Origin: Candidatus Puniceispirillales bacterium
GTDB taxonomy: Bacteria; Pseudomonadota; Alphaproteobacteria; Puniceispirillales; UBA1172
Assembly (NCBI GenBank): GCA_049595035.1
Contig: JBMYKD010000002.1
Span: 109,667-173,666 of the forward strand
Direction: 5' to 3'
DNA length: 64,000 nt
A program made the position numbers and the translations under genes. The notes below the pieces were generated by a model. That model was not told the DNA's origin. It made no database searches and saw only the letters and a program-made list of their open reading frames with translations. The stretch's first letter is position 1. Each line of letters starts with the position of its first letter. This document shows positions 4,467 through 45,389 of this stretch, piece by piece.

Positions 4467-4482
4467 CAGATGGGAACAGAAA

Positions 4483-23268: not shown

Positions 23269-25023
23269 TTATGTGTCATTAGCCCATAATCCTACCGTAT
23301 GATTATGTTCTGTTTCCACATCCAGGACAGGGTCGGCCGCCATGCTTTTATCCCTATATAGATCCATATTTTCATTACACCCCAGCGATAATAGCATATC
23401 CACTAACTGGTTTTTATCAGGACATAGCCGGGTGTTAAAATAACTCCATCGCCCGTGATTAATCTGACCATAAACATGGGCAGTATGAAAATCAGCAAAA
23501 GTGATTTGATCCAACCTATCCATACATGACCGGATAAACTGATATGGCAGTTCTGTTATCTGTGTTAACACATCTTCTGGTTGTCTGGCATCAACATTAA
23601 TATGCCGATACCGATCAATATTAGAGAGGGCATCCGGATCAAGAATGACCATGGATTTATTTTTACCAAAGGCAATGGTTCGTGGCGGCTCTCCCAGTGG
23701 TTGATCATTGTCAAGAAACTCGAAATGAATCGTTTTATTCTGAACCTGTGACCATGAAAAAAACAGACCCGGAATGCCAGTAAAGGCTTCAATATTATGA
23801 TACAACAAATCATCAACCGCCTTATAACGCTGGGTCGACAATCCCCTATTCCACGCCCTTTCTACTGTCTGGGATGGGGCTGTAATCACAAAAAACAGAT
23901 ATACCACATCGCCAAACCGCGTTAGCAGATTGCTTTGATAACTTCCTTCGGCATTAGTATCAAAGGAATCAAAACGGAAACGGTCAATCAATAAATGCGG
24001 CATAGTTGCTGCGGCTGCTTTTTCGGCCATATACTGATCTAGCTTACGATCAATCATGGTGAGTTCATGCCCTGTCAACATAGCGGCATATTTGTAATCT
24101 TCCCCTAGTGAGTTATAATCAATCAGGTATTTTCGCCAGTAATCTGGTGAAATCACGGCATAGTCTTCCCATTTTGTGCCAAGCTTTACGGCAAGTTGCC
24201 TTTGTTTTGGGCGAAGAGTGCTTTTACCTGCCGCCGATGCCCCTTTCGTATTCATCACCACCGGTTTGGCTTGCGGGGGAAGGAAACGATACCCTTCGGC
24301 TCTGGCGGCCTGATCGAAATCATTTGTAATCATTGCCCTGACTTGCTGGCTACCATAATCATGGAAAACCAGCCTGCTAGCCAGATCAACCATCATATCC
24401 AAGTCTGATATCAACCGCCCCTGCTGACCCATCATGGCGCTACCAAGCCTAACAAGCGCGGCATAGCATGATGACATAAGCGAGGCTTTTGGAGCATCTT
24501 TTGCTTCTTTTTTCCAGATAGCCAACAGGCTGTCATCATCCCGTCTGGTATAAGTGTTCCTGCCTTTCCATAAGCCAAAAAACTGTCTATTACCTGTGAC
24601 TTCAACCATCAGGCTTTGATCAAGAATATTGCATAATTCTATCCGGATTTGCGTTTTAACCTGATCAAATTGAATTCGGAACGCATCTAATTTGGGAATC
24701 ATATGTCGTTGATAGATATGATCGACCATTGACCGTAAAGAAATCCCCAGATCAGCATAATTGGGCCCATCCGGTACATATAGATCAGACGTCACCCGTA
24801 ACAGCAATTCATGAATAATCAGCCTTTCTACATTAAGGATAGCAAGGTCTGTTTCGGGCAAGCCACTTAATCGTGCCGCTTCCCGGGCATCATGGTAATT
24901 AATCGCCCCATTTTCCGGATCAAATAATGTGATGCGCGGCTTCAGATGAGGCGGGATTGATGACGAAATTCCCGGATTCCATGCGTTTTCAACAGGATTA
25001 TGATCAGCGTCTTTCGTCATCAT
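23269..25023 (-). CDS. hypothetical protein with a central P-loop (zeta-toxin/AAA_33-like kinase) module
   Basis: Walker A GASAAGKST at aa 261-269 (nt 24217-24243) and a Walker-B-like LLIDRFRFD. The ~250 aa N-terminal and ~130 aa C-terminal regions are unrecognised. It starts 7 nt after the tctA stop. Confidence 0.55.
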   Translation of the reverse strand: MMTKDADHNPVENAWNPGISSSIPPHLKPRITLFDPENGAINYHDAREAARLSGLPETDLAILNVERLIIHELLLRVTSDLYVPDGPNYADLGISLRSMVDHIYQRHMIPKLDAFRIQFDQVKTQIRIELCNILDQSLMVEVTGNRQFFGLWKGRNTYTRRDDDSLLAIWKKEAKDAPKASLMSSCYAALVRLGSAMMGQQGRLISDLDMMVDLASRLVFHDYGSQQVRAMITNDFDQAARAEGYRFLPPQAKPVVMNTKGASAAGKSTLRPKQRQLAVKLGTKWEDYAVISPDYWRKYLIDYNSLGEDYKYAAMLTGHELTMIDRKLDQYMAEKAAAATMPHLLIDRFRFDSFDTNAEGSYQSNLLTRFGDVVYLFFVITAPSQTVERAWNRGLSTQRYKAVDDLLYHNIEAFTGIPGLFFSWSQVQNKTIHFEFLDNDQPLGEPPRTIAFGKNKSMVILDPDALSNIDRYRHINVDARQPEDVLTQITELPYQFIRSCMDRLDQITFADFHTAHVYGQINHGRWSYFNTRLCPDKNQLVDMLLSLGCNENMDLYRDKSMAADPVLDVETEHNHTVGLWANDT

Positions 25024-25029
25024 CCTTGA

Positions 25030-26547
25030 TCAGGCATTGCGTCGCATCTTCCGCAAAATTAATTGTATCGCCGGCAGAAAGATCAAAATGATAGCACAAA
25101 TGGTAATTGGCCCGGCTATTGGTCTTGTAAAGAAGATCGTGAAGGTTTCATATTGTAGCAAAGTCTGACGTAAGGTTGGTTCAGCAATAGGGCCAAGAAC
25201 AATCGCCAGAACAGCCGGTGCGACCGGATAATCCAATATCCGCATGAAAAACCCGCCAAAACCTACCAGCACCATCAACCAGACATCAAACATATCCAAG
25301 TAAGCCGCATATGTGCCAACCAGCGATAATACAAAAATGGTAGGTGCAAGAATGGTAAATGGCATCCGCAACATCCATAGAAAGACAGGAATGAATAGAA
25401 TATTTACAAAAACGGCAACAAAGTTGGAAATGTAGAATGACCCAATCAACGGCCAGACAAAATCCGGCTGATCCGAAAATAATAACGGCCCCGGCTGAAG
25501 CCCCCAGATTACCATACCAGCAAGCAGAACAGCCGTCGTTGGTGACCCCGGAATACCAAGTGTCATCATCGGTAACATGGCCCCGGTAGAAGCTGAATTG
25601 TTAGCCGCTTCAGGTGCAGCCACGCCATCAACAGCACCTTTGCCGTATTTGCTTGGATCTTTTGACGTCATTTTGGTAACGCCATATGCCATCAGTGAAC
25701 CTGGTGTGGCTCCAGCGGCTGGCAGAATACCAACAAAGAAACCGATAAAAGAACCGATTAGCGTTCCCTTCCATGCAGTTCTAAACTGTTGCAAGGCATA
25801 GACGATGCTTGAAAAGTTCACTTCCACTTTTGACATGGATGACCCATAGCGCGAGGTGTTTATTGTCCATAACATTTCACCAATCCCGTAAATGCCAATA
25901 GCCAGAACAAGAAACCGGATCCCATGTGAAAACCCTTGGATATCGAAAAAGATCAGTCGAGGCTCACCCGATATGATATCAAACCCGACAGCTGACAGGG
26001 CTAGACCAAAACAGATGGAAAATATTGTTTTCGGAAAGTCATCCCCACCCAAACCCGCAAAAGTGGCAAAGGCAAGTAGCATTAGGGCAAAAATTTCAGG
26101 ATTGCCAAAATTCAAAGCCACAGATGCCAGAACAGGCGCAAATGCAGTGAATAAGACATTGGATATGGTTGCGCCAATAAATGATGCTAGCGCGGCCGCC
26201 ATTAACGCGACATGTGCCTTGCCCTGCATGGCTAGAGGCCGTCCATCAAAAGTCGTCGCTACCGCCGTTGATGCCCCCGGTATCCCCAGCGTAATGGATG
26301 ATATTGCCCCCCCATACATAGCCCCATAATAAATAGATGCCAGAAAGATCATGGGGGACGTCGCACCACCTGTAAATCCCTGAATAACAAATGTAAATGG
26401 AAGAAGAATAGCAACACCATTAACGGATCCAAGGCCGGGCATGGCACCAACAAACAGGCCAACAACAACCCCGATAATGGCTAGCCCCAGATTAACGGGC
26501 TGCAAAGCGATCATAATGCCTTCGATTAAATGACCTATGACTTCCAT
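25030..26547 (-). CDS. tctA: tripartite tricarboxylate transporter, large permease TctA
   Basis: 505 aa, polytopic, with ...GAMPGLG... and ...GILPAAGA... TctA motifs. Confidence 0.9.
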   Translation of the reverse strand: MEVIGHLIEGIMIALQPVNLGLAIIGVVVGLFVGAMPGLGSVNGVAILLPFTFVIQGFTGGATSPMIFLASIYYGAMYGGAISSITLGIPGASTAVATTFDGRPLAMQGKAHVALMAAALASFIGATISNVLFTAFAPVLASVALNFGNPEIFALMLLAFATFAGLGGDDFPKTIFSICFGLALSAVGFDIISGEPRLIFFDIQGFSHGIRFLVLAIGIYGIGEMLWTINTSRYGSSMSKVEVNFSSIVYALQQFRTAWKGTLIGSFIGFFVGILPAAGATPGSLMAYGVTKMTSKDPSKYGKGAVDGVAAPEAANNSASTGAMLPMMTLGIPGSPTTAVLLAGMVIWGLQPGPLLFSDQPDFVWPLIGSFYISNFVAVFVNILFIPVFLWMLRMPFTILAPTIFVLSLVGTYAAYLDMFDVWLMVLVGFGGFFMRILDYPVAPAVLAIVLGPIAEPTLRQTLLQYETFTIFFTRPIAGPITICAIILIFLPAIQLILRKMRRNA

Positions 26548-26586
26548 TTTATGATTTCCCCCACATTCACTTTATATGCTTAATTT

Positions 26587-27117
26587 TTATAGAAAAATGT
26601 CATAGAGCGGTATAAATAACGGCTCCAGATATCCTTTTGGTAAAACAATCCGCATAGCAACGTCGAAAAAGAAAAAACTGACTACTGGCATTGCGCTGGC
26701 AATAATCAGGGTTAGCAACCATGTATGCCGGCCAAGGAATTTGAGGTAATAAACCATGAAAAGGAACATAGCACCGTAAAATCCGGCCAGATGAATCATG
26801 ATCAGAAAACCGATAAGCCCTCCGCCAACGGTTAGAAACATTTTTTTTCCATAATCATCCAGAAACGGTTCTTCGGATACAGATTGCGGTGATCGTTTCA
26901 AGACCCAGTTTATGCCAATCCAGATCGTACATATCAGCATGATAAAACCGAGCCAGAATGGCCAGAAGCCGCTTCCGGGAGTGCCGGTTTCATCAAAGCC
27001 GATATTGGCAAAGCGGGGAACACTGGGATTCCATGCCGGTGGCTCACCGCTTTTCCACATAAGGTATATAGAGAATACTCCAAAGATAAACGCAGTTATA
27101 ATTTCTGCACGACGCAT
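26587..27117 (-). CDS. tctB: tripartite tricarboxylate transporter, small permease TctB
   Basis: 176 aa with 4 TM segments, located between tctC and tctA. Confidence 0.72.
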   Translation of the reverse strand: MRRAEIITAFIFGVFSIYLMWKSGEPPAWNPSVPRFANIGFDETGTPGSGFWPFWLGFIMLICTIWIGINWVLKRSPQSVSEEPFLDDYGKKMFLTVGGGLIGFLIMIHLAGFYGAMFLFMVYYLKFLGRHTWLLTLIIASAMPVVSFFFFDVAMRIVLPKGYLEPLFIPLYDIFL

Positions 27118-27152
27118 ATGTTCCCCCCTATATACCTTACGCTTTGATATTT

Positions 27153-28139
27153 TTACTGAATGGCACCTGAAGCGCGCAAAATTGTTTCGTGATTTGCACG
27201 TTGCAGTTTCCAGTAAGCCATTAGCTCATCACCAGACATGAGTTCACCCATGAGTGACTTTTTGCTTTTATAGTCCTGCCAGTCATCCGAGGCATAAACC
27301 TTGGCAAACAGGTCAGTATAATAGGCTTCGGCTTCATCAGACATGCCCGGGGCACCAACAACAGAACGTTGCATGAAGTAGCTGAAATCAACCCCTTTTT
27401 CACGCAAAGTAGGTACATCCGGGAACATTGGCAGACGTTCATCTGTAAATGCTACCAGAGCAATCATGTCACCGGATTCATAGAAACCAAGAGCTTCTGA
27501 TGGGTTGTTCACGGATGAATTGATCTGTTTACCAGCAACATCCTTAGCGACAGCACCCCCGCCCTTATACGGAATATACTTCATGGACAGGCCATAATTA
27601 TCATTCAGGAAATCGGTAATGATATTATCTTCGGAATTTGATCCTGTGCCACCCATGACCCAGTTCTTGCCTTCGGATTTTGCGACCTCAAGCCATTCTT
27701 CGAATGTTGTGATCCCACTATCCTTGTGAACCCATAAAAGGAATGTATCCTCAGCCATACGGGCAACCGGCGCAAATGTCAGAACATCTACATCCAGACC
27801 CGGCTGACGCAACGGGGTTGTATAAAATGAGTTCAATGTCACCATGATTGTATGATCAGGGTCACTGGCAGATTTAGCTGCAATCAGGGCTTCAGCCCCG
27901 GAACCACCAGATTTATTTGTTGGAACTAGTGGACGATTAGCAAGGTCTTCTTTTTCAACAATAGCCTGCATGAGTCGCGCCATTTTATCAGCACCACCAC
28001 CTTTACCGGCCATAATAATGAAATCGATAGGCTTGTTAGGTTGCCAGCCATGTCCATCTGCTTGCGCAAATCCTGACATTGCTGAAAGTGTCATGCCAGC
28101 GGCAACAAAGCCGGTGGCCATCTTTTTAAAAATGCTCAT
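27153..28139 (-). CDS. tctC: TTT-family (Bug/TctC) periplasmic solute-binding protein
   Basis: Signal peptide MSIFKKMATGFVAAGMTLSAMSGFAQA and ...GKGGGADK... The ATG at 28139 follows AGGAGG. The track ORF is 23 codons longer. Confidence 0.88.
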   Translation of the reverse strand: MSIFKKMATGFVAAGMTLSAMSGFAQADGHGWQPNKPIDFIIMAGKGGGADKMARLMQAIVEKEDLANRPLVPTNKSGGSGAEALIAAKSASDPDHTIMVTLNSFYTTPLRQPGLDVDVLTFAPVARMAEDTFLLWVHKDSGITTFEEWLEVAKSEGKNWVMGGTGSNSEDNIITDFLNDNYGLSMKYIPYKGGGAVAKDVAGKQINSSVNNPSEALGFYESGDMIALVAFTDERLPMFPDVPTLREKGVDFSYFMQRSVVGAPGMSDEAEAYYTDLFAKVYASDDWQDYKSKKSLMGELMSGDELMAYWKLQRANHETILRASGAIQ

Positions 28140-28222
28140 GTCTTCCTCCTTTAGAGCGGTTTCCCTTATTATTATCAAATAGACCGTTTTGGTCAGGAAA
28201 CTTACCAAACGGCAAAATAAAA

Positions 28223-28258
28223 GTGAAAATATGAAACTTGTAAATTTTTACAATTTAC
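28223..28258. promoter_or_regulatory. operator-like motif upstream of tctC: GTGAAAAT-N7-TTGTAAA-TT-TTTACAA-TTTAC
   Basis: 7-bp inverted repeat TTGTAAA/TTTACAA (28238-28253), about 100 nt upstream of the tctC ATG. A near-identical block occurs at 39342-39378. Confidence 0.35.
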
Positions 28259-28274
28259 TTAGTCTACACATCCA

Positions 28275-29138
28275 CTAATGTACCAGAACCAATGGCCCTG
28301 ATGCATGATCGACAAAATGTTGCGTCACTCCTCCTAATATTCTTTCAAAATACTGATTATTACCATAAGCCCCCAGAATAACGATATCAGCCTCACATGC
28401 CAGGCTAGCCTGCATTAAAGATGCCCCGGTTGTACCGGATGGCTTTACCATAATGATATCTGCCTTAATGTCATGTTCGGTCAGGTAGCTTTGCAATTCT
28501 TCCGGCTTGATTTCAACATGACCATTTTCAACAGTCAAAATCGTCAGCTTTTTAGCTATTTTCATCAGCCATAATGTCTGTGCTACCGCCCGTGTGGATT
28601 CAATCGATCCATCCCAGCATAATGCAACCTTATCAATGATATGGCTGTTATGATCAGGCATGTGTTCATCACACATATAGACAGGTCTGCCGGTATGGAA
28701 TAAGGCCGTTTTAAGGGTATTAGCACCTAAATTCCGGTCTATTTCCGGCTTGGCCACAACAATAATATCCGATAGACGGCCATGCCGCCTGACAACATCT
28801 ACCTGACGGCCTTCTGCTTCAATGAATTGTACAGAAACTTTATTTGCCACGGGCTGATCTGACATCGTCACCTCGGCAGATGAACAAATACGCTCCACTT
28901 CGCCACGCATAGCGGTTTCAGCCATATTGAAGACAGAGGCCGATTGGGTCATGATCTGCTTTTTCATATCCCGTGACATGGGCACACCAAAAGGCAGCAT
29001 GTCTTCGGGACGTAACCGGCAATGGGTGACAATAATATGGGCGTTTACCGCTTTTGCCAGAGAAATAGCATGGCGCAAAACGCGTTCCGCATTACCATCA
29101 TCTCTAACAGGAACGACTACCCTGTTTATCATTGTCAC
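28275..29138 (-). CDS. tandem universal stress protein (UspA family)
   Basis: 287 aa with two USP halves, each ending in a G-x2-G-x9-G(S/T)-like segment (...LGAYGNNQYFERILGGVT...). It starts 12 nt after the fhs stop. Confidence 0.78.
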   Translation of the reverse strand: MTMINRVVVPVRDDGNAERVLRHAISLAKAVNAHIIVTHCRLRPEDMLPFGVPMSRDMKKQIMTQSASVFNMAETAMRGEVERICSSAEVTMSDQPVANKVSVQFIEAEGRQVDVVRRHGRLSDIIVVAKPEIDRNLGANTLKTALFHTGRPVYMCDEHMPDHNSHIIDKVALCWDGSIESTRAVAQTLWLMKIAKKLTILTVENGHVEIKPEELQSYLTEHDIKADIIMVKPSGTTGASLMQASLACEADIVILGAYGNNQYFERILGGVTQHFVDHASGPLVLVH

Positions 29139-29150
29139 CCCCTTTAAATG

Positions 29151-30827
29151 TTAGAATAACCCCTCAATAAGGCCATTTTCATTAATGTGAATGCTTTCTG
29201 CTGCCGGCACTCTTGGCAATCCGGGCATCGTCATAATCTCACCACAGACAACGACGACAAAACCTGCACCTGCTGATAACCGGACTTCACGGATAGGAAG
29301 GCTATGGCCAGTTGGTGCGCCACGTTTATTCGGGTCTGTGGTAAAGCTATATTGCGTTTTTGCCATACATACTGGCAATTTACCATAACCCTGCTCTTCC
29401 CATGCTTTTAATTGATCGCGTAATTTCTGATCGGCAATCACTTCATCAGCGCGGTAGATTTCTTTGGCGATGGTTTCGATTTTTTCAAAAAGCCCCATTT
29501 CAACAGGATAAAGGGGCTGGTAATTAGTAGGTGATGATTCAATCATATTGACTACCGCTTTCGCCAGTTCTTCTGTTCCTGCGCTACCATCAGCCCAGTG
29601 GCGGCAGACAATGGCTGTGCCACCCTGATTATGAACGAATGTTTTCAATGCTTCAATTTCAGCATCGGTATCGCTGTAAAAATGATTGATAGCAACAATC
29701 GCCGGGACACCGAATTTCTGGATGTTTTCCATATGCCGGCCAAGATTAGGACAGCCGCGCTTGACCGCTTCGACATTTTCAACCCCAAGATCAGCCTTGG
29801 CAATGCCTCCGTTCATCTTCATTGCCCGAACCGTGGCAACAATTACGGTAGCATCTGGCTTCAACCCTGCCTGACGGCATTTGATATCAAGGAACTTTTC
29901 AGCCCCTAGATCAGCACCAAATCCGGCTTCGGTAACGACATAATCAGCCAGTTTAAGTGCGGTTTTTGTAGCAATGACCGAATTACACCCATGGGCAATA
30001 TTGGCGAATGGCCCACCATGAACAAAGGCAGGGTTATTTTCCAGTGTCTGCACCAGATTAGGTTGCATGGCCTGTTGCAATAGCACCGTCATGGCACCAT
30101 CAGCCTTAATATCACGACAGAATACCGGGCTACGATCACGACGATAGGCAATGATTATATCACCAAGACGACGTTCCAGATCAGCCAGATCATCTGCCAG
30201 ACAGAGAATAGCCATCACTTCTGATGCAACCGTAATATCAAATCCAGCTTCCCGTGGGAAACCATTGGCAACCCCCCCAAGGCTACATGTAATCTGACGG
30301 AGTGCTCTATCATTCATATCGAGAACGCGGCGGAAAGCGACACGGCGAATATCGATATCCTGCTCATTTCCCCAGTAAATGTGATTATCAATCAGGGCGG
30401 CTAACAAATTATGAGCTGATGTAATCGCATGAAAATCACCAGTAAAATGGAGGTTCATTTCTTCCATGGGGACGACTTGTGAATATCCCCCACCAGCGGC
30501 ACCACCCTTCATACCAAAGCAAGGGCCAAGTGACGCCTCACGGATACAGATAGCGGCGTTTTTGCCAATCCGGTTCAACCCATCACCAAGTCCGACGGTG
30601 GTTGTTGTTTTCCCTTCACCTGCAGGGGTAGGGTTAATGGCGGTGACGAGAATCAATTTGCCATTTTCACGTCCATCAAGGCTTTTGATAAAGCTTTCAG
30701 ATACCTTGGCCTTATCATGGCCATAGGGAAGCAAATGTTCATATGGAATACCAAGCTTTTCCCCAATATCCTTGATGGGTTTCTTTTTGGCTTCGCGGGC
30801 AATTTCAATGTCAGTTTTGTAGCTCAC
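29151..30827 (-). CDS. fhs: formate--tetrahydrofolate ligase
   Basis: 558 aa with ...[14 protein letters not shown]... P-loop and ...[13 protein letters not shown]... Confidence 0.95.
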
Positions 30828-30852
30828 TGTTTTATCCTATTCATTTTCTAGT

Positions 30853-31767
30853 CTAGTGTCCTAGAGTATTTCCGGTTTTAAGAGAGATTATTGATGCCCA
30901 TTCTGAAGCCGGAATCTTTCCGCTACCTTCAGGCCGGACACGTTTAATAAGAATTCGTCCACCATTTGCTTGGACTGTTACTCCTTCTTCAGAGATAGCA
31001 ACAATCTCACCAGCTTTGCCATCGCCGTCCATTCTAACTGCGTCATATATTTTTATCTCATCACCATTCAGCGTTGTCCACGCCCCTGGGGCAGGGTTTG
31101 CCGCCCGGATGGTGTTGTAGGTATCGGCTACCGGCTTAGACCAGTCGAGTTTAGCGCAATCCTTGTTAAACCAGCCTTCATAAGTGCCGTCTTCCAGCCG
31201 TTGATCATGTTTGATAATGACCCCGGCCTTAACCAGATCAAGACCTTCCAGCATTGCCGCGACCCCCATTGGGAACAGCTTTTTGAAATAGACATCACCA
31301 AGGGTTTCATCCGCACCAATAGGACAGGTTTTCTGCAACATGATTGGCCCTTCATCCAGACCGTCATCAGGCCAGAAAATCGTCAGTCCGGTATGGGTTT
31401 TACCCATAGCAATCGGCCAGTTGATAGATGAAGGCCCCCTATGTTGCGGGCATAAAGATGGATGATACTGGAATGTTCCATAAGTGGGTGCATCACGCAC
31501 CGCTTCAGGGACGAATAGCAATACATATGCCATCATGCATATATCAGCTTTGAAAGATTGCATTAAGGCAAGGGCTTCGGGCGTTTTCCATGACGCTGGC
31601 TGATGCAAGGGAAGTCCTTTTTCCTTTGCCAGTAATGCCAGCGGGTCCTCGGGCTTACCTTCTTTCGTCGGGGCACAACATACGGCAACCACATCTTCGC
31701 CTCTATCCAGAAGCTCTTTTAATACCGCTTCGCCAAAAGCCTGTTGTCCGTGTAAAACGATCCGCAT
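30853..31767 (-). CDS. formyltransferase-family protein resembling the N-terminal (hydrolase/formyl-transfer) domain of 10-formyl-THF dehydrogenase
   Basis: 304 aa with QYHPSLCPQHRGPSSINW (catalytic His), FWPDDGLDEGPIMLQ (catalytic Asp) and ...TYEGW...LDW...NP.PGAWT in the C-subdomain. Confidence 0.72.
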   Translation of the reverse strand: MRIVLHGQQAFGEAVLKELLDRGEDVVAVCCAPTKEGKPEDPLALLAKEKGLPLHQPASWKTPEALALMQSFKADICMMAYVLLFVPEAVRDAPTYGTFQYHPSLCPQHRGPSSINWPIAMGKTHTGLTIFWPDDGLDEGPIMLQKTCPIGADETLGDVYFKKLFPMGVAAMLEGLDLVKAGVIIKHDQRLEDGTYEGWFNKDCAKLDWSKPVADTYNTIRAANPAPGAWTTLNGDEIKIYDAVRMDGDGKAGEIVAISEEGVTVQANGGRILIKRVRPEGSGKIPASEWASIISLKTGNTLGH

Positions 31768-31783
31768 TTTATTGTCCCCCTTT

Positions 31784-33070: not shown

Positions 33071-33116
33071 CCATTATCATCATCAAAGTTACTATTTTCC
33101 CAACCTGAATTGAAAT

Positions 33117-35699: not shown

Positions 35700-35917
35700 T
35701 CCCCCCTTAGATCAGAATTTAATCTGATGATCTTGCTGGATATATATCAAGTCATTCAGACAATTCTTAACTCAACAAAAATACAATATACCAAAGAAAC
35801 ACTTCGTCAAGCCAGTCTTATAAATTTATACTTTTATTATATATTACAGTTATTTGGCCATTTTTATCATAATTATTTAAAATAGCATGTCTGTTCCGGC
35901 TTGAAAAATCAGTCGGC

Positions 35918-35927
35918 TGGTATACCA
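35918..35927. promoter_or_regulatory. candidate GntR/FadR-type operator TGGTATACCA
   Basis: Perfect 10-bp palindrome of the TGGT-Nx-ACCA class in the divergent oxc/sucC intergenic region. A second inverted repeat, CCATAT-N5-ATATGG, lies at 35931-35947. Confidence 0.3.
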
Positions 35928-36018
35928 TAGCCATATCGTAAATATGGCAATGATTCCGGCGGTTTAATATCACTTATTAAAACATCCGTTTCTACACAAT
36001 CATATATAAGGAAAGTCG

Positions 36019-37215: not shown

Positions 37216-37225
37216 GGGTACGATC

Positions 37226-38128: not shown

Positions 38129-38150
38129 GGGTTCTGCCATCACAAACAAA

Positions 38151-38178
38151 AAGAGCGCTCAAAAGCGCTCTTTTTTTA
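38151..38178 (+). terminator. rho-independent terminator after sucD (possibly bidirectional)
   Basis: AAGAGCGCT-CAAA-AGCGCTCTT stem-loop followed by a T-run, with an A-run on the other side facing the convergent gene that ends at 38206. Confidence 0.7.
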
Positions 38179-38205
38179 TTCTCGTCATAAAAGCGTAAGA
38201 AAGAC

Positions 38206-39273
38206 TTACGCCGATTTAGCAGGCATATTTTCAGCGGCCTCATTTTTAGCAAGACGATCATCAACAATGGCCACGATGGAATCAACCGTAGGATTGAACA
38301 TATCCAGATGACGGCCGATGATTTGTATCATGCGGTCAACGCGTTCAACCTTTGTCGTGCCAGCATCAATGGCGCGCGCAACCGAGGACGGCTTTAACAG
38401 CTGTTTGGCGGCGGCGGCATATTTGGCAAAAGGAACCTGATCACTTTCATCAGCACCAAGTTTCTGTGCCAGATGATCAACCCAGCGATACATCTGTTCA
38501 GCGGTATCGATATCACCATGAACAGCATCATGAATAGGCTGGATATCATCAGAACGGACACAACGATAATTACCAGTCATCAGCATTGACCATTTGGCCA
38601 TGGGCACAAATAGTGAGTTAAACACCCGCAACTTCACTGGCACATCCTTGCCATCAATGCGGACATTATCAATATCTTCGGCCAGTGTTTTCAGCATGGC
38701 ATTATGTTCATCTGAAGCAAAGGTGCTGGCCTTGAAATTTGTTGGCAATCCGACATGAAGAACATTGCTGCCTTCTTCTGGTGGGCGGAATGCCTGCGGG
38801 TCAGGGCTACAAAGAGAGATCAGCCCCGGTTCAAAATTAGCCCAGACGCTGGCATCATCATAGCAGGATGAAAGATCAGCATCAGCAAGGGCAGGAATAC
38901 GTTTCAGGAAAGCCAGCGGCGGCATATTCATGATAGATAGGCAGGGTTTTTTCGCATCTGCAATCCGTTTCATCAAGCCGGCAACGGAAGGAGAGGCATA
39001 TTGCGGTTCCTGCATAGCCAGACCGATCAGATCATATTGTTCTGGCTCAACCTGTTCAGGCGTCTTGGCATCAAGGGTACCAGGTTGATCCTTTGAAAGA
39101 ATGGATCTATGCGTATCCTCATCCCGGAGCTTAATTCGCACCTCTGTGCCTTGCGTATTAATCAGCTGGGCAGAAGTCGAACGGCAAACCAGAGTCACAT
39201 CATGGCCAGCCATAAGCAGTTTTGTTGAAAGTAGTGATCCGTAAGATGCACCGAGGATTAGAATTTTCATCAC
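38206..39273 (-). CDS. divergent ketopantoate-reductase (ApbA/PanE)-like NAD(P) oxidoreductase, substrate unknown
   Basis: N-terminal Rossmann MKILILGASYGS. By-eye counterparts of PanE motifs: IMNMP (IHNG), AKWSMLMTGN (WRKLxxN) and PSSVARAID...ERVD (SSMLQD...TExD). Confidence 0.42.
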   Translation of the reverse strand: MMKILILGASYGSLLSTKLLMAGHDVTLVCRSTSAQLINTQGTEVRIKLRDEDTHRSILSKDQPGTLDAKTPEQVEPEQYDLIGLAMQEPQYASPSVAGLMKRIADAKKPCLSIMNMPPLAFLKRIPALADADLSSCYDDASVWANFEPGLISLCSPDPQAFRPPEEGSNVLHVGLPTNFKASTFASDEHNAMLKTLAEDIDNVRIDGKDVPVKLRVFNSLFVPMAKWSMLMTGNYRCVRSDDIQPIHDAVHGDIDTAEQMYRWVDHLAQKLGADESDQVPFAKYAAAAKQLLKPSSVARAIDAGTTKVERVDRMIQIIGRHLDMFNPTVDSIVAIVDDRLAKNEAAENMPAKSA

Positions 39274-39341
39274 AAGGCTCCTTTAATTACATAAATAGAT
39301 TTAGGGGGAATGCCAATAAAGGAAAGGAAAAAAGTGATAAT

Positions 39342-39378
39342 GTGAAAATTGTAAATTATTTACATAAACAATTTACAA
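39342..39378. promoter_or_regulatory. operator-like motif GTGAAAAT-TGTAAAT-T-ATTTACA-N6-ATTTACAA in the divergent KPR-like/regulator intergenic region
   Basis: Perfect 15-bp palindrome TGTAAATTATTTACA (39350-39364) plus a third half-site at 39371-39378. Same block as at 28223-28258. Confidence 0.35.
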
Positions 39379-39431
39379 AATTAAGATCTATATGGTAACT
39401 TACTTTAATACATTGATATAATGAGGTTACC

Positions 39432-40874: not shown

Positions 40875-40884
40875 AAAACAGGAG

Positions 40885-43680
40885 TTATTCTGCCGCTGAT
40901 TCCATAGCTTTTGTCACCTGACAGGCGGAAAACTTGAATTCCGGGATCTTGCCATATGGATCAAGTTCAGAATTGGTAAGAATATTTGCCGCCGCTTCAA
41001 CATAGGCAAATGGCACGAAGACCATATCCTCAGCTACCGCACGGTCAGCCCTTGCCATGATATTAATCGCCCCGCGACGTGTCGTGATGGTTACCATGTC
41101 CCCAGCCTGAACCCCTAGCCGCCTTAATGTTTTCGGGTGCAGGGATGCGTTAGCTTCAGGTTCAATCACATCAAGCACTGTGGCACGGCGTGTCATCGAA
41201 CCTGTATGCCAATGTTCAAGCTGTCGTCCTGTTGTCATAATCATTGGAAATTCCGCATCAGGCGTTTCTGCCGGTGGAATGATATTCGCCGGAGTGAAGC
41301 GGGCTCTGCCGCCTTGACGCGGGAAGCTATCCCCAAAAACAATGGCCTGCCCCGGGTCTTCTGGCGAAAGCGATGGATACGTCACGGCATTTTCATTTTC
41401 CAGACGTTCCCAAGTGATATTATCCAGCGAAGCCATGGATGATTTCATTTCTGCAAACACTTCACTAGGATGCTGGAATGTCCAGTTCAACCCGACGCGC
41501 TTGGCCAGTTCAACCGTAATCCACCAGTCTTCTTTTGCGTCACCCGGCGCATCAACCGCTTTCCGGCCCATTTGAACCTGACGATTAGTATTTGTTACGG
41601 TGCCCGTTTTTTCAGCCCAGGCAGAAGCAGGCAGAATAACATCAGCGTAATTGGCTGTTTCGGTCAGGAAAATATCCTGCACAACCAGATGATCAAGCTT
41701 AGCCAGCGCATCTCGGGCATGATCGACATCAGGGTCAGACATAGCCGGATTTTCACCCAGAATATACATAGCCGTGATCTTATCATCATGAACAGCGTCC
41801 ATAATTTCGGTCACGGTAAGGCCTTTTTCGGCCGCGATATTATCAGATTGCCAGATGTCGTTAAATGCGCTTCTTACGCCGTCATCGGTGACGCTCTGAT
41901 AATCAGGCAGGAACATAGGGATCAATCCCGCATCAGATGCACCCTGCACGTTATTCTGGCCACGCAGAGGATGAAGCCCTGTTCCCGGACGCCCAACCTG
42001 ACCACACATCAGCGCCAGTGAGATCAGGCAACGCGAATTATCCGTGCCGTGAATATGTTGTGAAATTCCCATCCCCCAGAAAATCATGCCAGCTTTGGCC
42101 GTGGCAAAATCACGGGCAACCTGACGCAAGGTTTCCGCATCAATGCCGCAAAATTCCGACATATCTTCTGGGCTGAATGCCTTTAGATGATCTTTCATTT
42201 CATCCCAGTTTTCGGTGAAGCCATCGATATATTGTTCATCATAAAGATTTTCTTCAACAATCACATGCATGATCGCATTCAGCATGGCAACATCTGATCC
42301 GGGGCGGAATTGCAACATATGTGTGGCATGACGTTTCATGCCCTGCCCGCGTGGGTCCATCACAATCAGTTTTCCGCCACGCTTGGCAAATTGTTTGAAA
42401 TAGGTCGCTGCAACAGGGTGATTTTCAATCGGGTTACATCCAATCAGAATGGCAACATCCGCATTTTCAATTTCATTAAATGTAGCCGTGACCGCGCCTG
42501 AACCTACATTTTCAAGCAATGCCGCCACCGATGAGGCATGACAAAGTCTGGTACAGTGATCAACATTATTATGGCCAAAGCCTTCACGGATAAACCGCTG
42601 AAACAGATAAGCTTCTTCGTTAGAACATTTTGCTGATCCGAACCCGGCAACACGGGTACCGGAAATCGCGCGCGCTTCTGTCATTCCTCTAGCGGCGATA
42701 TCAAGGGCTTCTTCCCAGCTGGCTTCACGGAAATGGCTTAACGGATAGGCCGGATCAACATTTAATCCCTTAGCCGGCGCATCATCACGCCGGATCAATG
42801 GCTTGGTCAGACGATGCGGGTGGTGAATATAATCGAAACCAAAACGGCCTTTAACGCAAAGCCGGTTTTCATTGGCGGGGCCAGTTGCGCCCTCAACATA
42901 CTTGATTTTATCATCCTTGATTTTAAAGGTAAGCTGACAGCCAACCCCGCAATAAGGACAGATGGATTGCACTTCCTTATCAATATCCTTGCTATCGCCT
43001 AGCTGGGCGCTATCAAGCACACTGGCCGGCATCAGGGCACCAGTTGGGCAGGCCTGCACACATTCCCCACAAGCGACACATGTGGACTGACCCATAGCAT
43101 CATCCATATCAAATACAATTTTCGCATGATTGCCGCGGCCTGACATGCCGATCACATCATTCACCTGTACCTCACGGCATGCCCGAACGCATAGATTACA
43201 ATGAATGCAGGCATCAAGATTAACCCGCATAGCAACATGCGAGTCATCAAGCAACGGGATCAGATCAGGTGATTTTGAAGGAAACCGGCTTTCCGTGACC
43301 TGATTAGCCGCCATCATGGTCAGAAAATGTGACGACGCATCATGAGATTCAGCAGGTTGATCTGCGGCAAGCAATTCCACAACAAGCGCGCGGGATTTTT
43401 CAGCACGTTCTGATGCGGTATTGACTACCATGCCTTCCTGAACAGATCGAATACATGAAGCCACTAACGCCCGTTCCCCTTCTACTTCTACCATACAGGC
43501 ACGGCAATTTCCGTCAGACCGGTAACCGGGTTCCGGTTTGTGGCATAAATGCGGGATAATATTACCCTGCCCTTGTGCGGCTTCCCAGATGGTTGACCCT
43601 TCGGGAACAGAAACCGTCTTGCCGTCAAGGGTGATGGAAACTGTTTTTACGTCAGTGTTATTTGGGAAACTATCTGGCAT
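40885..43680 (-). CDS. fdsA: NAD-linked formate dehydrogenase alpha (Mo/W-bis-PGD) subunit
   Basis: 931 aa with an N-terminal 2Fe-2S/4Fe-4S NuoG-like region (CHKPEPGYRSDGNCRACMVEV, CIHCNLCVRAC, CVACGECVQACP). The active-site segment HCTRLCHASSVAAL has Cys, not Sec. Confidence 0.9.
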   Translation of the reverse strand: MPDSFPNNTDVKTVSITLDGKTVSVPEGSTIWEAAQGQGNIIPHLCHKPEPGYRSDGNCRACMVEVEGERALVASCIRSVQEGMVVNTASERAEKSRALVVELLAADQPAESHDASSHFLTMMAANQVTESRFPSKSPDLIPLLDDSHVAMRVNLDACIHCNLCVRACREVQVNDVIGMSGRGNHAKIVFDMDDAMGQSTCVACGECVQACPTGALMPASVLDSAQLGDSKDIDKEVQSICPYCGVGCQLTFKIKDDKIKYVEGATGPANENRLCVKGRFGFDYIHHPHRLTKPLIRRDDAPAKGLNVDPAYPLSHFREASWEEALDIAARGMTEARAISGTRVAGFGSAKCSNEEAYLFQRFIREGFGHNNVDHCTRLCHASSVAALLENVGSGAVTATFNEIENADVAILIGCNPIENHPVAATYFKQFAKRGGKLIVMDPRGQGMKRHATHMLQFRPGSDVAMLNAIMHVIVEENLYDEQYIDGFTENWDEMKDHLKAFSPEDMSEFCGIDAETLRQVARDFATAKAGMIFWGMGISQHIHGTDNSRCLISLALMCGQVGRPGTGLHPLRGQNNVQGASDAGLIPMFLPDYQSVTDDGVRSAFNDIWQSDNIAAEKGLTVTEIMDAVHDDKITAMYILGENPAMSDPDVDHARDALAKLDHLVVQDIFLTETANYADVILPASAWAEKTGTVTNTNRQVQMGRKAVDAPGDAKEDWWITVELAKRVGLNWTFQHPSEVFAEMKSSMASLDNITWERLENENAVTYPSLSPEDPGQAIVFGDSFPRQGGRARFTPANIIPPAETPDAEFPMIMTTGRQLEHWHTGSMTRRATVLDVIEPEANASLHPKTLRRLGVQAGDMVTITTRRGAINIMARADRAVAEDMVFVPFAYVEAAANILTNSELDPYGKIPEFKFSACQVTKAMESAAE

Positions 43681-43691
43681 GGATCAATTCC

Positions 43692-45389
43692 TTAACTGAT
43701 TTCGCTATCGAAATGTTTCATGGTTAGACGAATTGCATTCGGCGCCGCCTGCCCTAGACCACAAATAGAGGCATCGCTCATCACCTGACATAAGTCTTCC
43801 AGTAATGGTTTATCCCATTCTTCATTCTGCATCAACTGAACAGCTTTGCTACACCCTGTCCGGCAGGGTGTACATTGCCCACAACTTTCATCTTCAAAAA
43901 AACGCAACATGTTTAACGCGGCATCTCTGGCTTTATCCTGATCCGACAGAACAACAACAGCGGCAGACCCGATAAAGCTACCATGCGGTTGCAGGGTATC
44001 AAAATCCAGCGGCACATCGTTTAATGTTGCAGGCAGAATACCTGATGAAGGCCCGCCCGGCTGATACGCTTTGAACACATGGCCATCAGCCATGCCGCCA
44101 GCGGCTTCTATAATATCCATGATGGTTGAACCGGCCGGCAACAGATAGACCCCCGGTTTTTCCACCCGACCGGATACCGAATAACTCCGTAATCCCTTAC
44201 GGCCATTTTTTTCAACCGATGACAGGATTTCTGATCCTTCCCGACAGATGCGGGCAATCCAGTATAATGTTTCGATATTATGAACCAAGGTGGGACGACC
44301 AAACAGCCCGACCTGTGCCACATAAGGCGGCCGGTGTCGTGGCAGACCGCGCTTTCCTTCAATGGATTCAATCATCGCGCTTTCTTCACCGCAAATATAC
44401 GCGCCTGCCCCGCGGCGCAGATCAATATAATCCGGTTCAACAATACCGGCATCAACCAGACGCTGGATTTCTTCAGCAAGAATATGCAGAACAGCAGGAT
44501 ATTCATCCCGCATATAGATAAAGCACTGTTCGGCTTCAACGGCCCATGCGGCAATCAGCATCCCTTCCAGAAACAGATGTGGGGTGCGTTCCAAATAATA
44601 GCGATCCTTGAAAGTGCCGGGCTCGCCCTCATCTCCATTCACGGCAAGATAGCGTGTGCCTTCGGCGGCACGGACAAATCCCCATTTCTTGCCAGACGGG
44701 AAACCAGCACCGCCCAGACCACGCAGGCCGCTTTGATGTACCTGTTCCTGCACGTCTTCCCAATTCCCGTTCTGGCGCAAATCAAGCAGTTTTTCATAAC
44801 CGCCTTCCGCGCAATATGCGGTGAAATTCTGATAGTCCGGGATATGGGGATGCGTATCATCGGCTTCAATGGCGGCATTCACTTTTTCAACTGTGGCATG
44901 ATCGATATGATTATGGCCGATTTCCAGTGCTGGCGCGGTATCACAACGTCCCATGCAAGGCGCCCGCAACACCCGCACTTGCGATGGATCAAGCCCGTCT
45001 TGCAGGGCTTTCATCAGGTTCTGCGCCCCTGCCAGTTCACAAGACAGCGAATCACATACCCGAATGGTCAGGTCAGGTGGCGGAGCCTTGCCTTCATCGA
45101 CAACATCAAAATGGGCATAAAAGGTTGCCACTTCATAAACTTCTGTCTGGGATAGCTGCAATTCATCCGCAAGGGCGTGCATATGCGCGATGCTAAGATG
45201 GCCATAGTTATCCTGAATCAGATGCAGAAACTCGATCAGCAAATCGCGGCGGCGTGGACGGGCACCCAGAATGGCGCGGACTTCAGCACAAGCCTGATCA
45301 TCAACCTGCCGTCCCTTAGGGGTTTTGCGCCCTTTTCCTCTGGCAGATTTCCATATCCCGTTTTCATCTGTTATGGCGTCCAAGACCAA
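43692..45389 (-). CDS. fdsB: formate dehydrogenase diaphorase subunit, fused NuoE-like (gamma) + NuoF-like (beta)
   Basis: 2Fe-2S Cys pairs VCDSLSCE and PCMGRCD, FMN/NAD site GLRGLGGAGFPSGKKW, and 4Fe-4S ESCGQCTPCR. The track start is a TTG at 45389. The TTG at 45383 has better spacing from GGAGGA. Confidence 0.87.
   Translation of the reverse strand: MVLDAITDENGIWKSARGKGRKTPKGRQVDDQACAEVRAILGARPRRRDLLIEFLHLIQDNYGHLSIAHMHALADELQLSQTEVYEVATFYAHFDVVDEGKAPPPDLTIRVCDSLSCELAGAQNLMKALQDGLDPSQVRVLRAPCMGRCDTAPALEIGHNHIDHATVEKVNAAIEADDTHPHIPDYQNFTAYCAEGGYEKLLDLRQNGNWEDVQEQVHQSGLRGLGGAGFPSGKKWGFVRAAEGTRYLAVNGDEGEPGTFKDRYYLERTPHLFLEGMLIAAWAVEAEQCFIYMRDEYPAVLHILAEEIQRLVDAGIVEPDYIDLRRGAGAYICGEESAMIESIEGKRGLPRHRPPYVAQVGLFGRPTLVHNIETLYWIARICREGSEILSSVEKNGRKGLRSYSVSGRVEKPGVYLLPAGSTIMDIIEAAGGMADGHVFKAYQPGGPSSGILPATLNDVPLDFDTLQPHGSFIGSAAVVVLSDQDKARDAALNMLRFFEDESCGQCTPCRTGCSKAVQLMQNEEWDKPLLEDLCQVMSDASICGLGQAAPNAIRLTMKHFDSEIS

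Follow-up and report, generated by a model that had tools for sequence, protein, structure and literature searches.

In a 64,000-nucleotide stretch of Candidatus Puniceispirillales bacterium (GenBank assembly GCA_049595035.1, contig JBMYKD010000002.1, positions 109,667 to 173,666 of the forward strand; hereafter the window, numbered from its first letter), a 22-kb block of contiguous genes probably forms an oxalate-utilization regulon of a SAR116 (Puniceispirillales) alphaproteobacterium, a reading to which, with the roles and the regulation proposed below, we assign a probability of roughly 0.7. Genes for oxalyl-CoA decarboxylase (Oxc) and formyl-CoA:oxalate CoA-transferase (Frc) lie there together with a GntR-family regulator, a formyltransferase (ftr), formate-tetrahydrofolate ligase (Fhs), a universal stress protein (USP), a tripartite tricarboxylate transporter (TTT; TctCBA), a P-loop protein, succinate-CoA ligase (SucCD), a ketopantoate reductase (KPR)-like protein, a ScfR-type regulator and a formate dehydrogenase (FdsBA). 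An earlier note on this DNA, made from its letters alone, had placed every one of these genes where we find it, and our map of open reading frames (ORFs) and the Pfam and NCBIfam assignments agree with it. Two further proposals concern single parts of the block, namely that the formyltransferase is a formyl-CoA:tetrahydrofolate formyltransferase which forms a bridge with Fhs, and that the regulator, which is joined in frame to Oxc by a linker, is a functional enzyme-tethered repressor; taken jointly they are tentative, and we place them somewhat below even odds.

Core enzymes and proposed pathway

Oxc and Frc, which the earlier note had assigned to oxalate, both passed oxalate-specific equivalog models. 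Oxc scored 1007.3 against a cut-off of 557 (NF006721) and 986.4 against 739.4 (TIGR03254), with TPP_enzyme_N, M and C domains all present, and it missed the model for 2-hydroxyacyl-CoA lyase (231 vs 600). Frc scored 689.9 against 504.2 (TIGR03253), and its glycine-rich oxalate loop, which reads DSGGGQ, is the feature by which the FCOCT subgroup is recognized (PMC3720670). Equivalog cut-offs were also exceeded by Fhs (NF010030, 931.9 vs 652) and by FdsA (TIGR01591, 737 vs 666), the latter with the Cys-His active-site motif LCHAS, and FdsB combines the Pfam domains 2Fe-2S_thioredx, Complex1_51K and NADH_4Fe-4S; by family assignment fdsBA encodes a soluble NAD-linked molybdo/tungsto formate dehydrogenase of the Fds or Fdh1AB type.

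SucC (NF001913, 547.4 vs 370) and SucD (NF004230, 445.9 vs 336) passed the models for the ADP-forming succinate-CoA ligase, and their reading as a malate thiokinase was discarded, the malate-CoA ligase beta model being missed (481.4 vs 604). In Afipia sucCD lies 3' of oxc-frc-tctCBA and a major facilitator superfamily (MFS) gene with no mdh upstream, and in Bosea frc and an NDP-forming acyl-CoA synthetase precede it; because of this context, and because operator 1 (described below) stands at the sucC promoter, sucCD may serve the module as a source of succinyl-CoA or as a thioester sink. The Frc of Oxalobacter formigenes accepts succinate. The synthetase of Bosea sp. BK604 (L013, 13958-16234, between frc and sucCD) is a 758-aa protein with ATP-grasp_5, CoA_binding, Succ_CoA_lig and Ligase_CoA_2 domains, and a second GntR gene follows; with the synthetase a further ATP-dependent CoA ligase accompanies oxc-frc.

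In the pathway which we propose, TctCBA would import oxalate, as gene order suggests. By family membership, Frc forms oxalyl-CoA from oxalate and formyl-CoA, Oxc decarboxylates oxalyl-CoA to formyl-CoA and CO2, FdsBA oxidizes the released formate to CO2 with NAD+, and Fhs loads formate onto tetrahydrofolate (THF) at the expense of ATP. The ftr product, judged from homology and gene order, would shuttle formyl between 10-formyl-THF and the CoA thiol, and together with Fhs it could make up a reversible ATP-coupled bridge (formate + ATP + CoA <-> formyl-CoA + ADP + Pi, via 10-formyl-THF). Such a bridge could prime or replenish the autocatalytic Frc/Oxc cycle, whose labile formyl-CoA runs down when oxalyl-CoA is drawn off; in reverse the bridge would harvest ATP from formyl-CoA, and it would serve any locus whose thiamine pyrophosphate (TPP) enzyme produces formyl-CoA, those with a substitute for Oxc among them. 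The earlier note had read one-carbon (C1) assimilation from the block; the fhs-ftr pair may link formate to formyl-CoA and not simply feed such assimilation. A second supply of CoA thioester, as succinyl-CoA, would come from SucCD, the KPR-fold reductase might occupy a reductive branch between oxalyl-CoA or glyoxylate and assimilation, and the USP and the zeta-like kinase, whose genes bracket tctCBA, may modulate the transporter or some other step.

Conservation and spread of the block

For a scan of genomes the regulator-Oxc protein was used as query, flanks of 10 kb were taken and all window proteins were mapped onto the 80 loci returned (numbered L001 onwards); a second, independent scan, of metagenomes, was centred on the formyltransferase. 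The locus nearest to the window belongs to a Candidatus Puniceispirillales metagenome-assembled genome, and the nearest proteins bear SAR116 or Puniceispirillaceae names. Four Puniceispirillales lineages show the whole block, P-loop gene through fdsB, in colinear order at 73-92% amino acid identity, which supplies the comparative synteny on which the idea of a module in the earlier note depended. L001 holds the whole block in unchanged order at 72-94% amino acid identity, and L081 (fusion protein 73% identical) and L082/83 (81%), which were reached via protein look-ups, are fully colinear, their order being qor, then fdsB-fdsA-scfR-kpr-sucD-sucC, gntR~oxc-frc-ftr-fhs-usp-tctC-tctB-tctA-P-loop, and then ribH or bisC. 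Beyond this clade, the ten-gene array gntR-oxc-frc-ftr-fhs-(usp)-tctCBA-P-loop was found in BAL199 (L004), an alphaproteobacterial metagenome-assembled genome (L051), Denitrobaculum tricleocarpae (L084) and LSUCC0684 (L085), a SAR116 strain in culture. Within 10 kb of oxc we found tctA in 42 of the 80 loci, the formyltransferase in 29, fhs in 22, fdsA/B in 13, sucCD in 11, usp in 8 and the KPR-like gene in 7, the carriers of these accessory genes including Xanthobacteraceae, Hyphomicrobiaceae, Bradyrhizobium, Afipia, Bosea and the gammaproteobacterial Granulosicoccus, with order and orientation varying among them. Furthermore, the stretch from 28.2 to 36.0 kb of the window recurs near-verbatim in at least 20 independent metagenome runs (seawater, marine, biofilm and 'plant').

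Because the arrangement recurs in many genomes it goes beyond chance, and since the accessory genes return beside oxc-frc they are regular companions of it; what the earlier note had suspected to be a variant pathway organization is thus an undescribed but widespread layout and not a one-off assembly. The parts which that note had singled out as unusual are all present, but they are not unusual, as each of them recurs beside gntR-oxc-frc in other Alphaproteobacteria. In the literature we found no description of oxc-frc with a TTT or TctC, of oxalate use in SAR116 or of a GntR-Oxc protein, and a paper on Azospirillum OX-1 proved uninformative. A mutual exclusion of ftr-fhs and sucCD across loci was considered and dropped, the counts (26, 9 and, with both, 3) giving no clear departure from independence.

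Shared operators and transcription

The perfect copy of operator 1, TGGTATACCA, overlaps a promoter-like -10 element of sucC and occupies the same place in L001, L081 and L082, and a related box, AGGTATACAT, precedes fdsB (Table 1). The hexamer GTATAC occurs only twice in the window (35920-35925 and 45468-45473) against 6.4 occurrences expected from shuffles, and both are operator cores. In L001 the box upstream of fdsB is TGGTATACAT at -79, and L082 has two boxes of this type ahead of fdsB (-82 and -44) and one ahead of sucC (-85). When the regions upstream of gntR in 77 loci were scanned for an operator-1-like box (GT..AC core, at most 2 mismatches), 36 of them contained one, mostly at -50 to -90, where about 0.05 per locus were expected by chance. 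Since boxes of the TGGTATACCA type stand at both places, the oxc operon, sucCD and fdsBA are tied to one operator type. The regulator encoded at the head of the oxc operon joins a winged helix-turn-helix (HTH) to an FCD domain and comes with a palindromic putative operator of the T.GT...AC.A type, as is characteristic of the FCD subfamily of GntR regulators, and it would bind TGGTATACCA at sucCD/gntR~oxc and at fdsBA, as the conserved operators suggest.

Operator 2 has the form TTGTAAA-N2/3-TTTACAA. It appears as the perfect palindrome TTGTAAATTTTTACAA at 28238-28253, in the gap between usp and tctC, and as the paired boxes AAATTGTAAAT ... ATTTACAAAAT between kpr and scfR. Upstream of kpr the version with N3 is perfect in L001, L051 and L081 and has one mismatch in L082; at the orthologous place upstream of tctC the operator is found in the window, L001 and L051. 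We revised the start of tctC to the ATG at 28139, in front of which stands an AGGAGG Shine-Dalgarno sequence, and because this is the true start the usp-tctC gap measures 135 nt, the length, with an operator-like palindrome inside, that had been reported before. By its Pfam domains (ScfRs 183.8, Peptidase_M78 79.7 and HTH_3 37.9 bits) the second regulator belongs to the ScfR (RamB/PrpR-type) family, and it missed the equivalog model for RamB itself (401.7 vs 700). Regulators in this family recognize paired DNA boxes and have CoA thioesters as ligands (PMC10370305), and as its gene is adjacent to such boxes the ScfR-type protein is the likely binder of operator 2 and a plausible acyl-CoA sensor, which would act at kpr/scfR and at tctC. 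TTGCAA boxes upstream of fdsB were dropped as ScfR sites, being not conserved in L001; what is conserved at that site is the operator-1-like box. The local regulators expected from the earlier reading of the sequence, GntR/FCD and ScfR-type, are thus both in place, and the conserved operators which the transcription units share are in-silico evidence for co-regulation.

Marine metatranscriptome contigs at least 92% alike to the window were found on tctC, usp, fhs, ftr, frc, oxc, gntR, sucC, sucD, scfR, fdsA and fdsB. In each of two runs a contig stops at 28262, which is 9 nt upstream of the tctC palindrome, and a third contig (28143-28353) spans the whole usp-tctC gap; this pattern could reflect a transcript start of tctC plus read-through from usp.

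The reductase and a possible glyoxylate route

The KPR-like protein missed the Pfam ApbA model (22.0 vs 22.2, for the N-terminal part only) and the NCBIfam PanE model (28.5 vs 223), and a sequence search of the PDB gave no match. Its AlphaFold2 (AF2) model has a pLDDT of 92.4, and in Foldseek the best matches were D-mandelate dehydrogenase and KPRs (E 6e-15, TM 0.66-0.78, 14-17% identity) over both domains; by its predicted fold it is a 2-oxoacid or acyl reductase. Homologues form a large, divergent subfamily that is very conserved within itself (66-87% identity), mostly unnamed and otherwise called 'hypothetical' or 'ketopantoate reductase family', and the copies near oxc include Bradyrhizobium at 62-69% identity. 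The earlier note had suggested an oxalyl-CoA reductase of the PanE2 type; the KPR fold is borne out by the model, the PanE sequence models failed, and because the match is at the level of fold the function of oxalyl-CoA reductase stays a guess.

The same protein is pivotal to another explanation, in which what the module mainly oxidizes is not imported oxalate but glyoxylate formed from glycolate, one of the major exudates of phytoplankton. The KPR-fold protein would then be a CoA-acylating glyoxylate dehydrogenase which yields oxalyl-CoA, Oxc would convert this to formyl-CoA, the TTT would import glycolate or glyoxylate, and ATP would be recovered through Frc and SucCD (formyl-CoA + succinate -> succinyl-CoA -> ATP) or through ftr and Fhs in reverse. 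A glyoxylate route by way of oxalyl-CoA decarboxylation is documented in Cupriavidus necator, which has ApbA2-Oxc-Frc-FdsABDG with the PanE2 homologue, ApbA2 (51% identical to PanE2), adjoining frc-oxc (PMC7486775); the explanation also accounts for two reversible ATP-coupled ligases in one block, and the organism is marine. However, kpr is absent from most of the loci that have frc-ftr-fhs or sucCD and its operator differs from that of oxc, its kinship with PanE2 is putative, the PanE sequence models having been missed, no glcDEF turned up among the window ORFs of at least 150 aa, and Frc and Oxc match equivalogs specific for oxalate. We therefore regard a glyoxylate module as improbable and retain imported oxalate as the likelier substrate.

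Transporter, universal stress protein and P-loop kinase

TctC, TctB and TctA all score above the Pfam gathering cut-offs, which identifies a TTT transporter. The best PDB relatives of TctC are Bug27 and other TTT binding proteins (E 4e-24), relatives which bind diverse carboxylates, and the conserved gene order makes oxalate the most likely substrate of TctCBA. As the earlier note had stated, no OxlT-type antiporter is encoded among the window ORFs of at least 150 aa. In an Afipia sp. locus (L070, 18153-19448) an MFS_1 gene lies between tctA and sucC in the order oxc-frc-tctCBA-MFS-sucCD, and it could encode an OxlT-like carrier beside the TTT.

The USP carries the ATP-type motif G-x2-G-x9-G-G-V-T near its C-terminus, its only PDB sequence match is TeaD, the USP of the TRAP transporter TeaABC, at a weak E of 1e-3, and in 8 of the 80 loci its gene stands between fhs and tctC. 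The P-loop protein scored 19.4 on Pfam Zeta_toxin (cut-off 22.3) and found no match in a sequence search of the PDB. In its AF2 model (pLDDT 86.9) the Walker A motif (aa 261-269) lies in a zeta-toxin-like small-molecule kinase core; this central domain alone matches zeta/PezT, AvrRxo1 and adenylate kinases in Foldseek (E 4e-4), and the helical N-domain and beta C-domain that flank it are both unmatched. There are about 4900 full-length homologues, and the protein has many invariant Asp/Arg residues and a Walker A motif that looks active; in L084 and L085 the gene after tctA again encodes a homologue, at 48-49% identity. A toxin-antitoxin function of the zeta/PezT kind was rejected in view of the length (584 aa vs about 250-290), the two extra domains and the neighbours, which are tctA and housekeeping genes.

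Weighing the oxalate reading

A sceptic might grant that gntR-oxc-frc is an oxalate unit and hold that all other genes have independent general roles and stand together by chance or through genome streamlining, with sucCD serving the tricarboxylic acid (TCA) cycle, fdsBA general formate oxidation, fhs and ftr folate metabolism and tctCBA the import of another carboxylate. SucCD and Fhs do pass housekeeping equivalog models, a scan for sigma-70 promoters gave matches not above chance, and the accessory content varies between lineages. Against this, the same accessories recur beside oxc-frc in Xanthobacteraceae, Hyphomicrobiaceae, Granulosicoccaceae and Rhodospirillales in differing orders and orientations, operator 1 is common to sucCD, gntR~oxc and fdsBA, the sucCD of Afipia follows oxc-frc-tctCBA-MFS with no mdh upstream, and ftr has frc directly 5' in 84% of testable loci. 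Chance neighbourhood thus appears very unlikely to us, and an oxalate regulon remains the preferred account.

Several points count against that account, beyond the promoter scan and the housekeeping score of SucCD just given. The link of the genes in this block to oxalate comes from homology and gene order. No second copy of sucCD was found in the window, and neither YfdE of E. coli nor UctC of A. aceti uses succinyl-CoA with oxalate (PMC3720670). No operator 1 turned up ahead of fdsB in L081, and operator 2 is missing upstream of tctC in L081, L082, L004 and L084. Metatranscriptome contigs were found on neither tctA nor kpr, and the RNA data, being assembled contigs from mixed communities, show transcription in situ and not induction. 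The KPR-like protein is, by its predicted structure, a fold-level relative of PanE, the PDB relatives of TctC bind diverse carboxylates, and the ftr product could be a 10-formyl-THF hydrolase or an N-formyltransferase, as weighed in the next section.

A stand-alone formyltransferase between frc and fhs

In a PDB sequence search the ftr product matched the N-terminal domain of 10-formyltetrahydrofolate dehydrogenase (ALDH1L1) with E 2e-54 over aa 1-290, that is over both subdomains and at full length, and more weakly Fmt (3.5e-39), ArnA (6e-21) and HypX/HoxX (1.7e-13). It missed the equivalog model for methionyl-tRNA formyltransferase (TIGR00460 fmt, 133.5 vs 201.5), and with 304 aa made up of Formyl_trans_N and Formyl_trans_C alone, lacking a carrier or aldehyde dehydrogenase (ALDH) domain, it is not a full ALDH1L1. 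The catalytic triad of the dehydrogenase domain, His106/Ser108/Asp142, corresponds to His102/Ser104/Asp138 here and is invariant in 33 oxc-linked orthologues of 48-88% identity. Where the neighbours could be tested in the metagenome loci, the gene immediately upstream of ftr was frc in 56 of 67 (84%) and the gene immediately downstream was fhs in 41 of 64.

The triad frc-ftr-fhs is also kept in variant loci where a TPP enzyme other than Oxc (223 vs 557 bits) stands upstream. In one of these (L154) the TPP enzyme at 2793-4589 comes nearest to PRK05858 'acetolactate synthase' (452/587) and then to 2-hydroxyacyl-CoA lyase (359/600), and it is followed by a true frc (700 vs 504 bits) and an ftr orthologue which missed the fmt equivalog (157 vs 201.5). 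Further variants are L100, L102, L103, L121, L126, L130, L138, L149, L150, L156, L163 and L165, with fhs in several of them, and their TPP enzyme may be another enzyme that forms formyl-CoA. Because formyl-CoA is the metabolite common to all settings of ftr, we propose, from homology to the dehydrogenase and HypX and from gene order, that ftr encodes a reversible 10-formyl-THF:CoA formyltransferase. The dehydrogenase domain passes its formyl group to the thiol of a 4'-phosphopantetheine arm, and the homologous domain of HypX has been proposed to formylate CoA, for which its authors report that direct experimental results are not yet available (PMC6802093). We found no free-standing enzyme described in the literature that transfers a formyl group between formyl-CoA and THF. 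In E. coli YfdE acts as a 'priming' transferase for the Frc/Oxc cycle, whose formyl-CoA is labile with a half-life of 1.9 h (PMC3720670).

The enzyme might instead have no link to CoA and be a hydrolase of 10-formyl-THF that controls the folate pool in the manner of PurU, or an N-formyltransferase acting on an unknown amine. The nearest characterized relative is after all called a hydrolase domain, hydrolysis is what the isolated domain performs in vitro, the relatives Fmt and ArnA formylate amines, and the CoA-linked activity has the lack of a described stand-alone precedent to contend with. But a hydrolase beside Fhs would set up an ATP-wasting cycle, the physiological acceptor of the dehydrogenase domain is the phosphopantetheine thiol and that proposed for HypX is CoA, and the tight linkage of ftr to frc persists where another TPP enzyme replaces Oxc, which points to formyl-CoA as the shared metabolite. 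We consider such a folate hydrolase or amine formyltransferase unlikely, and the CoA-linked transferase is the function which we favour.

The GntR~Oxc fusion

The regulator gene at the head of operon 1 has no stop codon of its own and continues through a linker into oxc, by sequence a true in-frame fusion at the gene level, confined to one SAR116 subclade. A GntR/FCD gene stands immediately 5' of oxc on the same strand in 76 of the 80 loci, and its stop is missing only in L001 and L002; gntR and oxc are separate genes in L084 and L085. A sequencing or assembly error was rejected as the cause, the junction being identical without indels in four independent metagenome assemblies. Some 45 clusters of such fusions, 838-928 aa long and 73-100% identical, were found, and their linkers, of 35-120 aa, vary in length and sequence and are open in all. 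At the DNA level the linkers of the lineages compared have 0 stops in frame against 2-4 and 7-18 in the other two frames (2 and 7 in the window), and when linkers were shuffled the chance of an open frame was 0.033, 0.005, 0.012 and 0.051 for four lineages. The Shine-Dalgarno sequence and start codon of oxc are kept in L001, L002 and L082, the AAGGAG being read as Lys-Glu in the fusion frame.

It is possible that the fusion has no function of its own, the regulator having lost its stop so that a few ribosomes read through a tolerated spacer, with both parts working as in the relatives that have separate genes. In keeping with this, gntR and oxc are a separate pair in 76 of the 80 other genomes and in L084 and L085, the Shine-Dalgarno sequence and ATG of oxc are retained, and the linker sequence is poorly conserved. 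Yet the linker has stayed open in frame through several changes of length in lineages down to 73% identity, against 2-18 stops in the other frames and a chance of 0.005-0.05 per lineage that a shuffled linker lacks stops. A functionless fusion is in our view rather doubtful, though it has to be reckoned with; since a neutral fusion should have regained stops, the fusion appears to be kept by selection. In the function that we propose, the repressor of this subclade would be translated in frame into Oxc, and free Oxc would also be made from the internal ribosome-binding site and is probably still the main product.

Other apparent fusions were set aside. In two proteins of 62-63% identity (P0048 and P0049) the FCD domain ends in an arginine-rich stretch that looks out of frame, so that both are probably frameshift or assembly artefacts, and 'full coverage' tblastn hits in Bradyrhizobium and others are two genes split by stops. 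A eukaryote transcriptome assembly (P0051, eukprot TRINITY transcript) contains a 747-aa FCD and Oxc ORF of 65% identity; it probably stems from an associated bacterium, the ORF caller having run on across the intergenic spacer.

Coordinates and surroundings of the block

The features of the block are collected in Table 1. For operon 1 the earlier note had given gaps of 12-46 nt, and the gaps from gntR~oxc to usp measure 46, 16, 25 and 12 nt.

Table 1. Genes and sequence elements of the block, by position in the 64,000-nt window.
Feature	Position	Strand	Remarks
P-loop protein	23269..25023	minus	584 aa; last gene of the tct operon; Walker A GASAAGKST
tctA	25030..26547	minus	large membrane subunit of TTT transporter; Pfam TctA 450.8 bits
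tctB	26587..27117	minus	small membrane subunit; Pfam TctB 61.6 bits
tctC	27153..28139	minus	periplasmic binding protein; Pfam TctC 79.4 bits
operator 2	28238..28253		perfect palindrome TTGTAAATTTTTACAA in the usp-tctC gap
usp	28275..29138	minus	tandem universal stress protein; Pfam Usp 48.4 bits
fhs	29151..30827	minus	formate-tetrahydrofolate ligase
ftr	30853..31767	minus	304 aa, Formyl_trans_N and C; formyltransferase of the ALDH1L1 N-terminal hydrolase-domain type
frc	31784..33070	minus	formyl-CoA:oxalate CoA-transferase
gntR~oxc	35699..33117	minus	single 860-aa ORF; GntR HTH aa 43-83, FCD 99-214, linker, TPP_N/M/C from aa 298
oxc part	33117..34877	minus	own AAGGAG Shine-Dalgarno and ATG (34877..34875) inside the long ORF
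linker	34878..35018	minus	about 47 codons (residues 228-274), acidic, S/T/P/Q-rich; in frame between regulator and Oxc
GntR/FCD regulator part	35019..35699	minus	Pfam GntR 49.3, FCD 73.1 bits; without own stop codon
promoter-like TTGACG-16-TATTGT	35783..35810	minus	for gntR~oxc; consensus match, inside a stretch conserved in L001 and L002
operator 1	35918..35927		perfect TGGTATACCA, single perfect copy in the window; 96 nt 5' of sucC, 224 nt 5' of gntR
sucC	36019-37215	plus	divergent from the oxc operon
sucD	37226-38128	plus	divergent from the oxc operon, 3' of sucC
terminator hairpin	38148..38175		bidirectional, between convergent sucD and kpr; perfect 12-bp stem, T-runs on either side
kpr (KPR-like reductase)	38206..39273	minus	355 aa, predicted NAD(P)-dependent; KPR / D-mandelate dehydrogenase fold
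operator 2, paired boxes	39346..39381		AAATTGTAAAT ... ATTTACAAAAT in the kpr/scfR intergenic region
scfR (ScfR-type regulator)	39432-40874	plus	HTH_3, M78-like and ScfRs C-domain
fdsA	40885..43680	minus	formate dehydrogenase alpha subunit
fdsB	43692..45389	minus	NuoE and NuoF fusion; formate dehydrogenase beta subunit
operator-1-like box	45466..45475	minus	AGGTATACAT on the fdsB coding strand, 82 nt 5' of fdsB

The P-loop gene is separated from ribH by a gene for a BisC/TorA-like molybdopterin S/N-oxide reductase (20850-23216), which falls short of its cut-off (908 vs 1017 bits). L082 has this gene and L081 lacks it, which makes it a variable insertion at the block edge and the P-loop gene the last of the block. 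Described in the earlier note as a possible peripheral tartronate-semialdehyde/glyoxylate reductase, the beta-hydroxyacid dehydrogenase at 19455-20318 is indeed outside the conserved block, and it missed the tartronate-semialdehyde reductase cut-off (224 vs 341). The remainder of the window, scanned for ORFs of at least 150 aa, is housekeeping (purL, cysS, gltX, nadE, DAHP synthase, lepA, leuA, pheST, thrS and gltB), and two minus-strand ORFs in these surroundings (13759-14901 and 17944-18447, 380 and 167 aa) have no Pfam match at E <= 1e-6. Neither an OxlT-like MFS gene nor gcl, glcDEF or serine-cycle genes turned up among the ORFs scanned. In Bradyrhizobium and Afipia (L022, L023, L025, L026, L058, L070 and L072) a second TPP enzyme, 25-27% identical to Oxc, is encoded upstream of gntR-oxc and adjoins a beta-hydroxyacid dehydrogenase homologue, a pair that looks like gcl and tartronate-semialdehyde reductase of the glycerate pathway; nothing comparable is seen in the SAR116 window.

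Relation to known systems and significance

The Frc/Oxc core with its autocatalytic cycle of oxalyl-CoA and formyl-CoA is shared with Oxalobacter formigenes and with the yfdXWUVE operon of E. coli. Uptake differs from both, a TTT standing in place of OxlT or YfdV, and where the E. coli operon has the accessory 'priming' enzyme YfdE (PMC3720670), an acetyl-CoA:oxalate transferase of that type is missing here and Fhs, the formyltransferase and SucCD are found instead; control by EvgA is replaced by GntR/FCD and ScfR-type regulators, and an NAD-linked formate dehydrogenase is attached. With C. necator the block has in common a reductase or dehydrogenase gene near frc-oxc and a soluble formate dehydrogenase, the reductase here being a KPR relative at the level of fold. 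The oxalate toolkit of Methylobacterium (Methylorubrum) extorquens AM1 consists of oxc, frc, panE2, ftfL and the two-subunit Fdh1AB. Shared by the two are Oxc, Frc, formate-THF ligase and the two-subunit NAD-linked formate dehydrogenase with a NuoE/NuoF-type beta subunit, whereas the TTT, the USP, the kinase and the formyltransferase are extra here and the match of the KPR-like protein to the PanE2 type is at the level of fold. Thus the Frc/Oxc pathway, formate oxidation and formate-THF ligation are already known from these four organisms; what is new is the conserved accessory set with its two-operator wiring, the candidate link between formyl-CoA and folate, and the repressor-enzyme fusion.

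With the N-terminal domain of ALDH1L1 and with HypX the formyltransferase shares the fold, aligned at full length over both subdomains, and the His/Ser/Asp triad; unlike them it stands alone, without a carrier and ALDH domain or an enoyl-CoA-hydratase-like decarbonylase domain, and is encoded between frc and fhs. As in TeaABC-TeaD a USP is encoded with a binding-protein-dependent secondary transporter, but that transporter is a TTT and not a TRAP system, the tandem USP gene is upstream of tctC and the match is weak (E 1e-3). Regulators fused to enzymes are known in the 'trigger enzymes' PutA and BirA and in the MocR-type GntR fusions, which likewise unite a DNA-binding domain and an enzyme of the regulated pathway in one polypeptide. 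In GntR~Oxc, by contrast, the regulator is a complete two-domain GntR/FCD protein that already has a ligand domain, a disordered linker connects it to a full TPP enzyme, which is predicted to be made also alone from an internal start, and the fusion is limited to one SAR116 subclade.

A survey of 2023 noted a marine alphaproteobacterial clade of oxc without analysing its operons or transport (PMC10192776). Marine oxalate turnover is little studied, and the block described here gives this clade a complete gene set, for which LSUCC0684, Denitrobaculum tricleocarpae and BAL199 can be named as cultured carriers; the two operators predict a small regulon. GntR~Oxc would be a natural case of a repressor with its own ligand domain fused to an enzyme under its control. 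If the formyl link between CoA and folate is true, it would fill a gap between two C1 pools and offer a ready-made part for engineered formyl-CoA pathways, and it would be a second natural answer, besides YfdE, to the 'priming' problem of the Frc/Oxc cycle.

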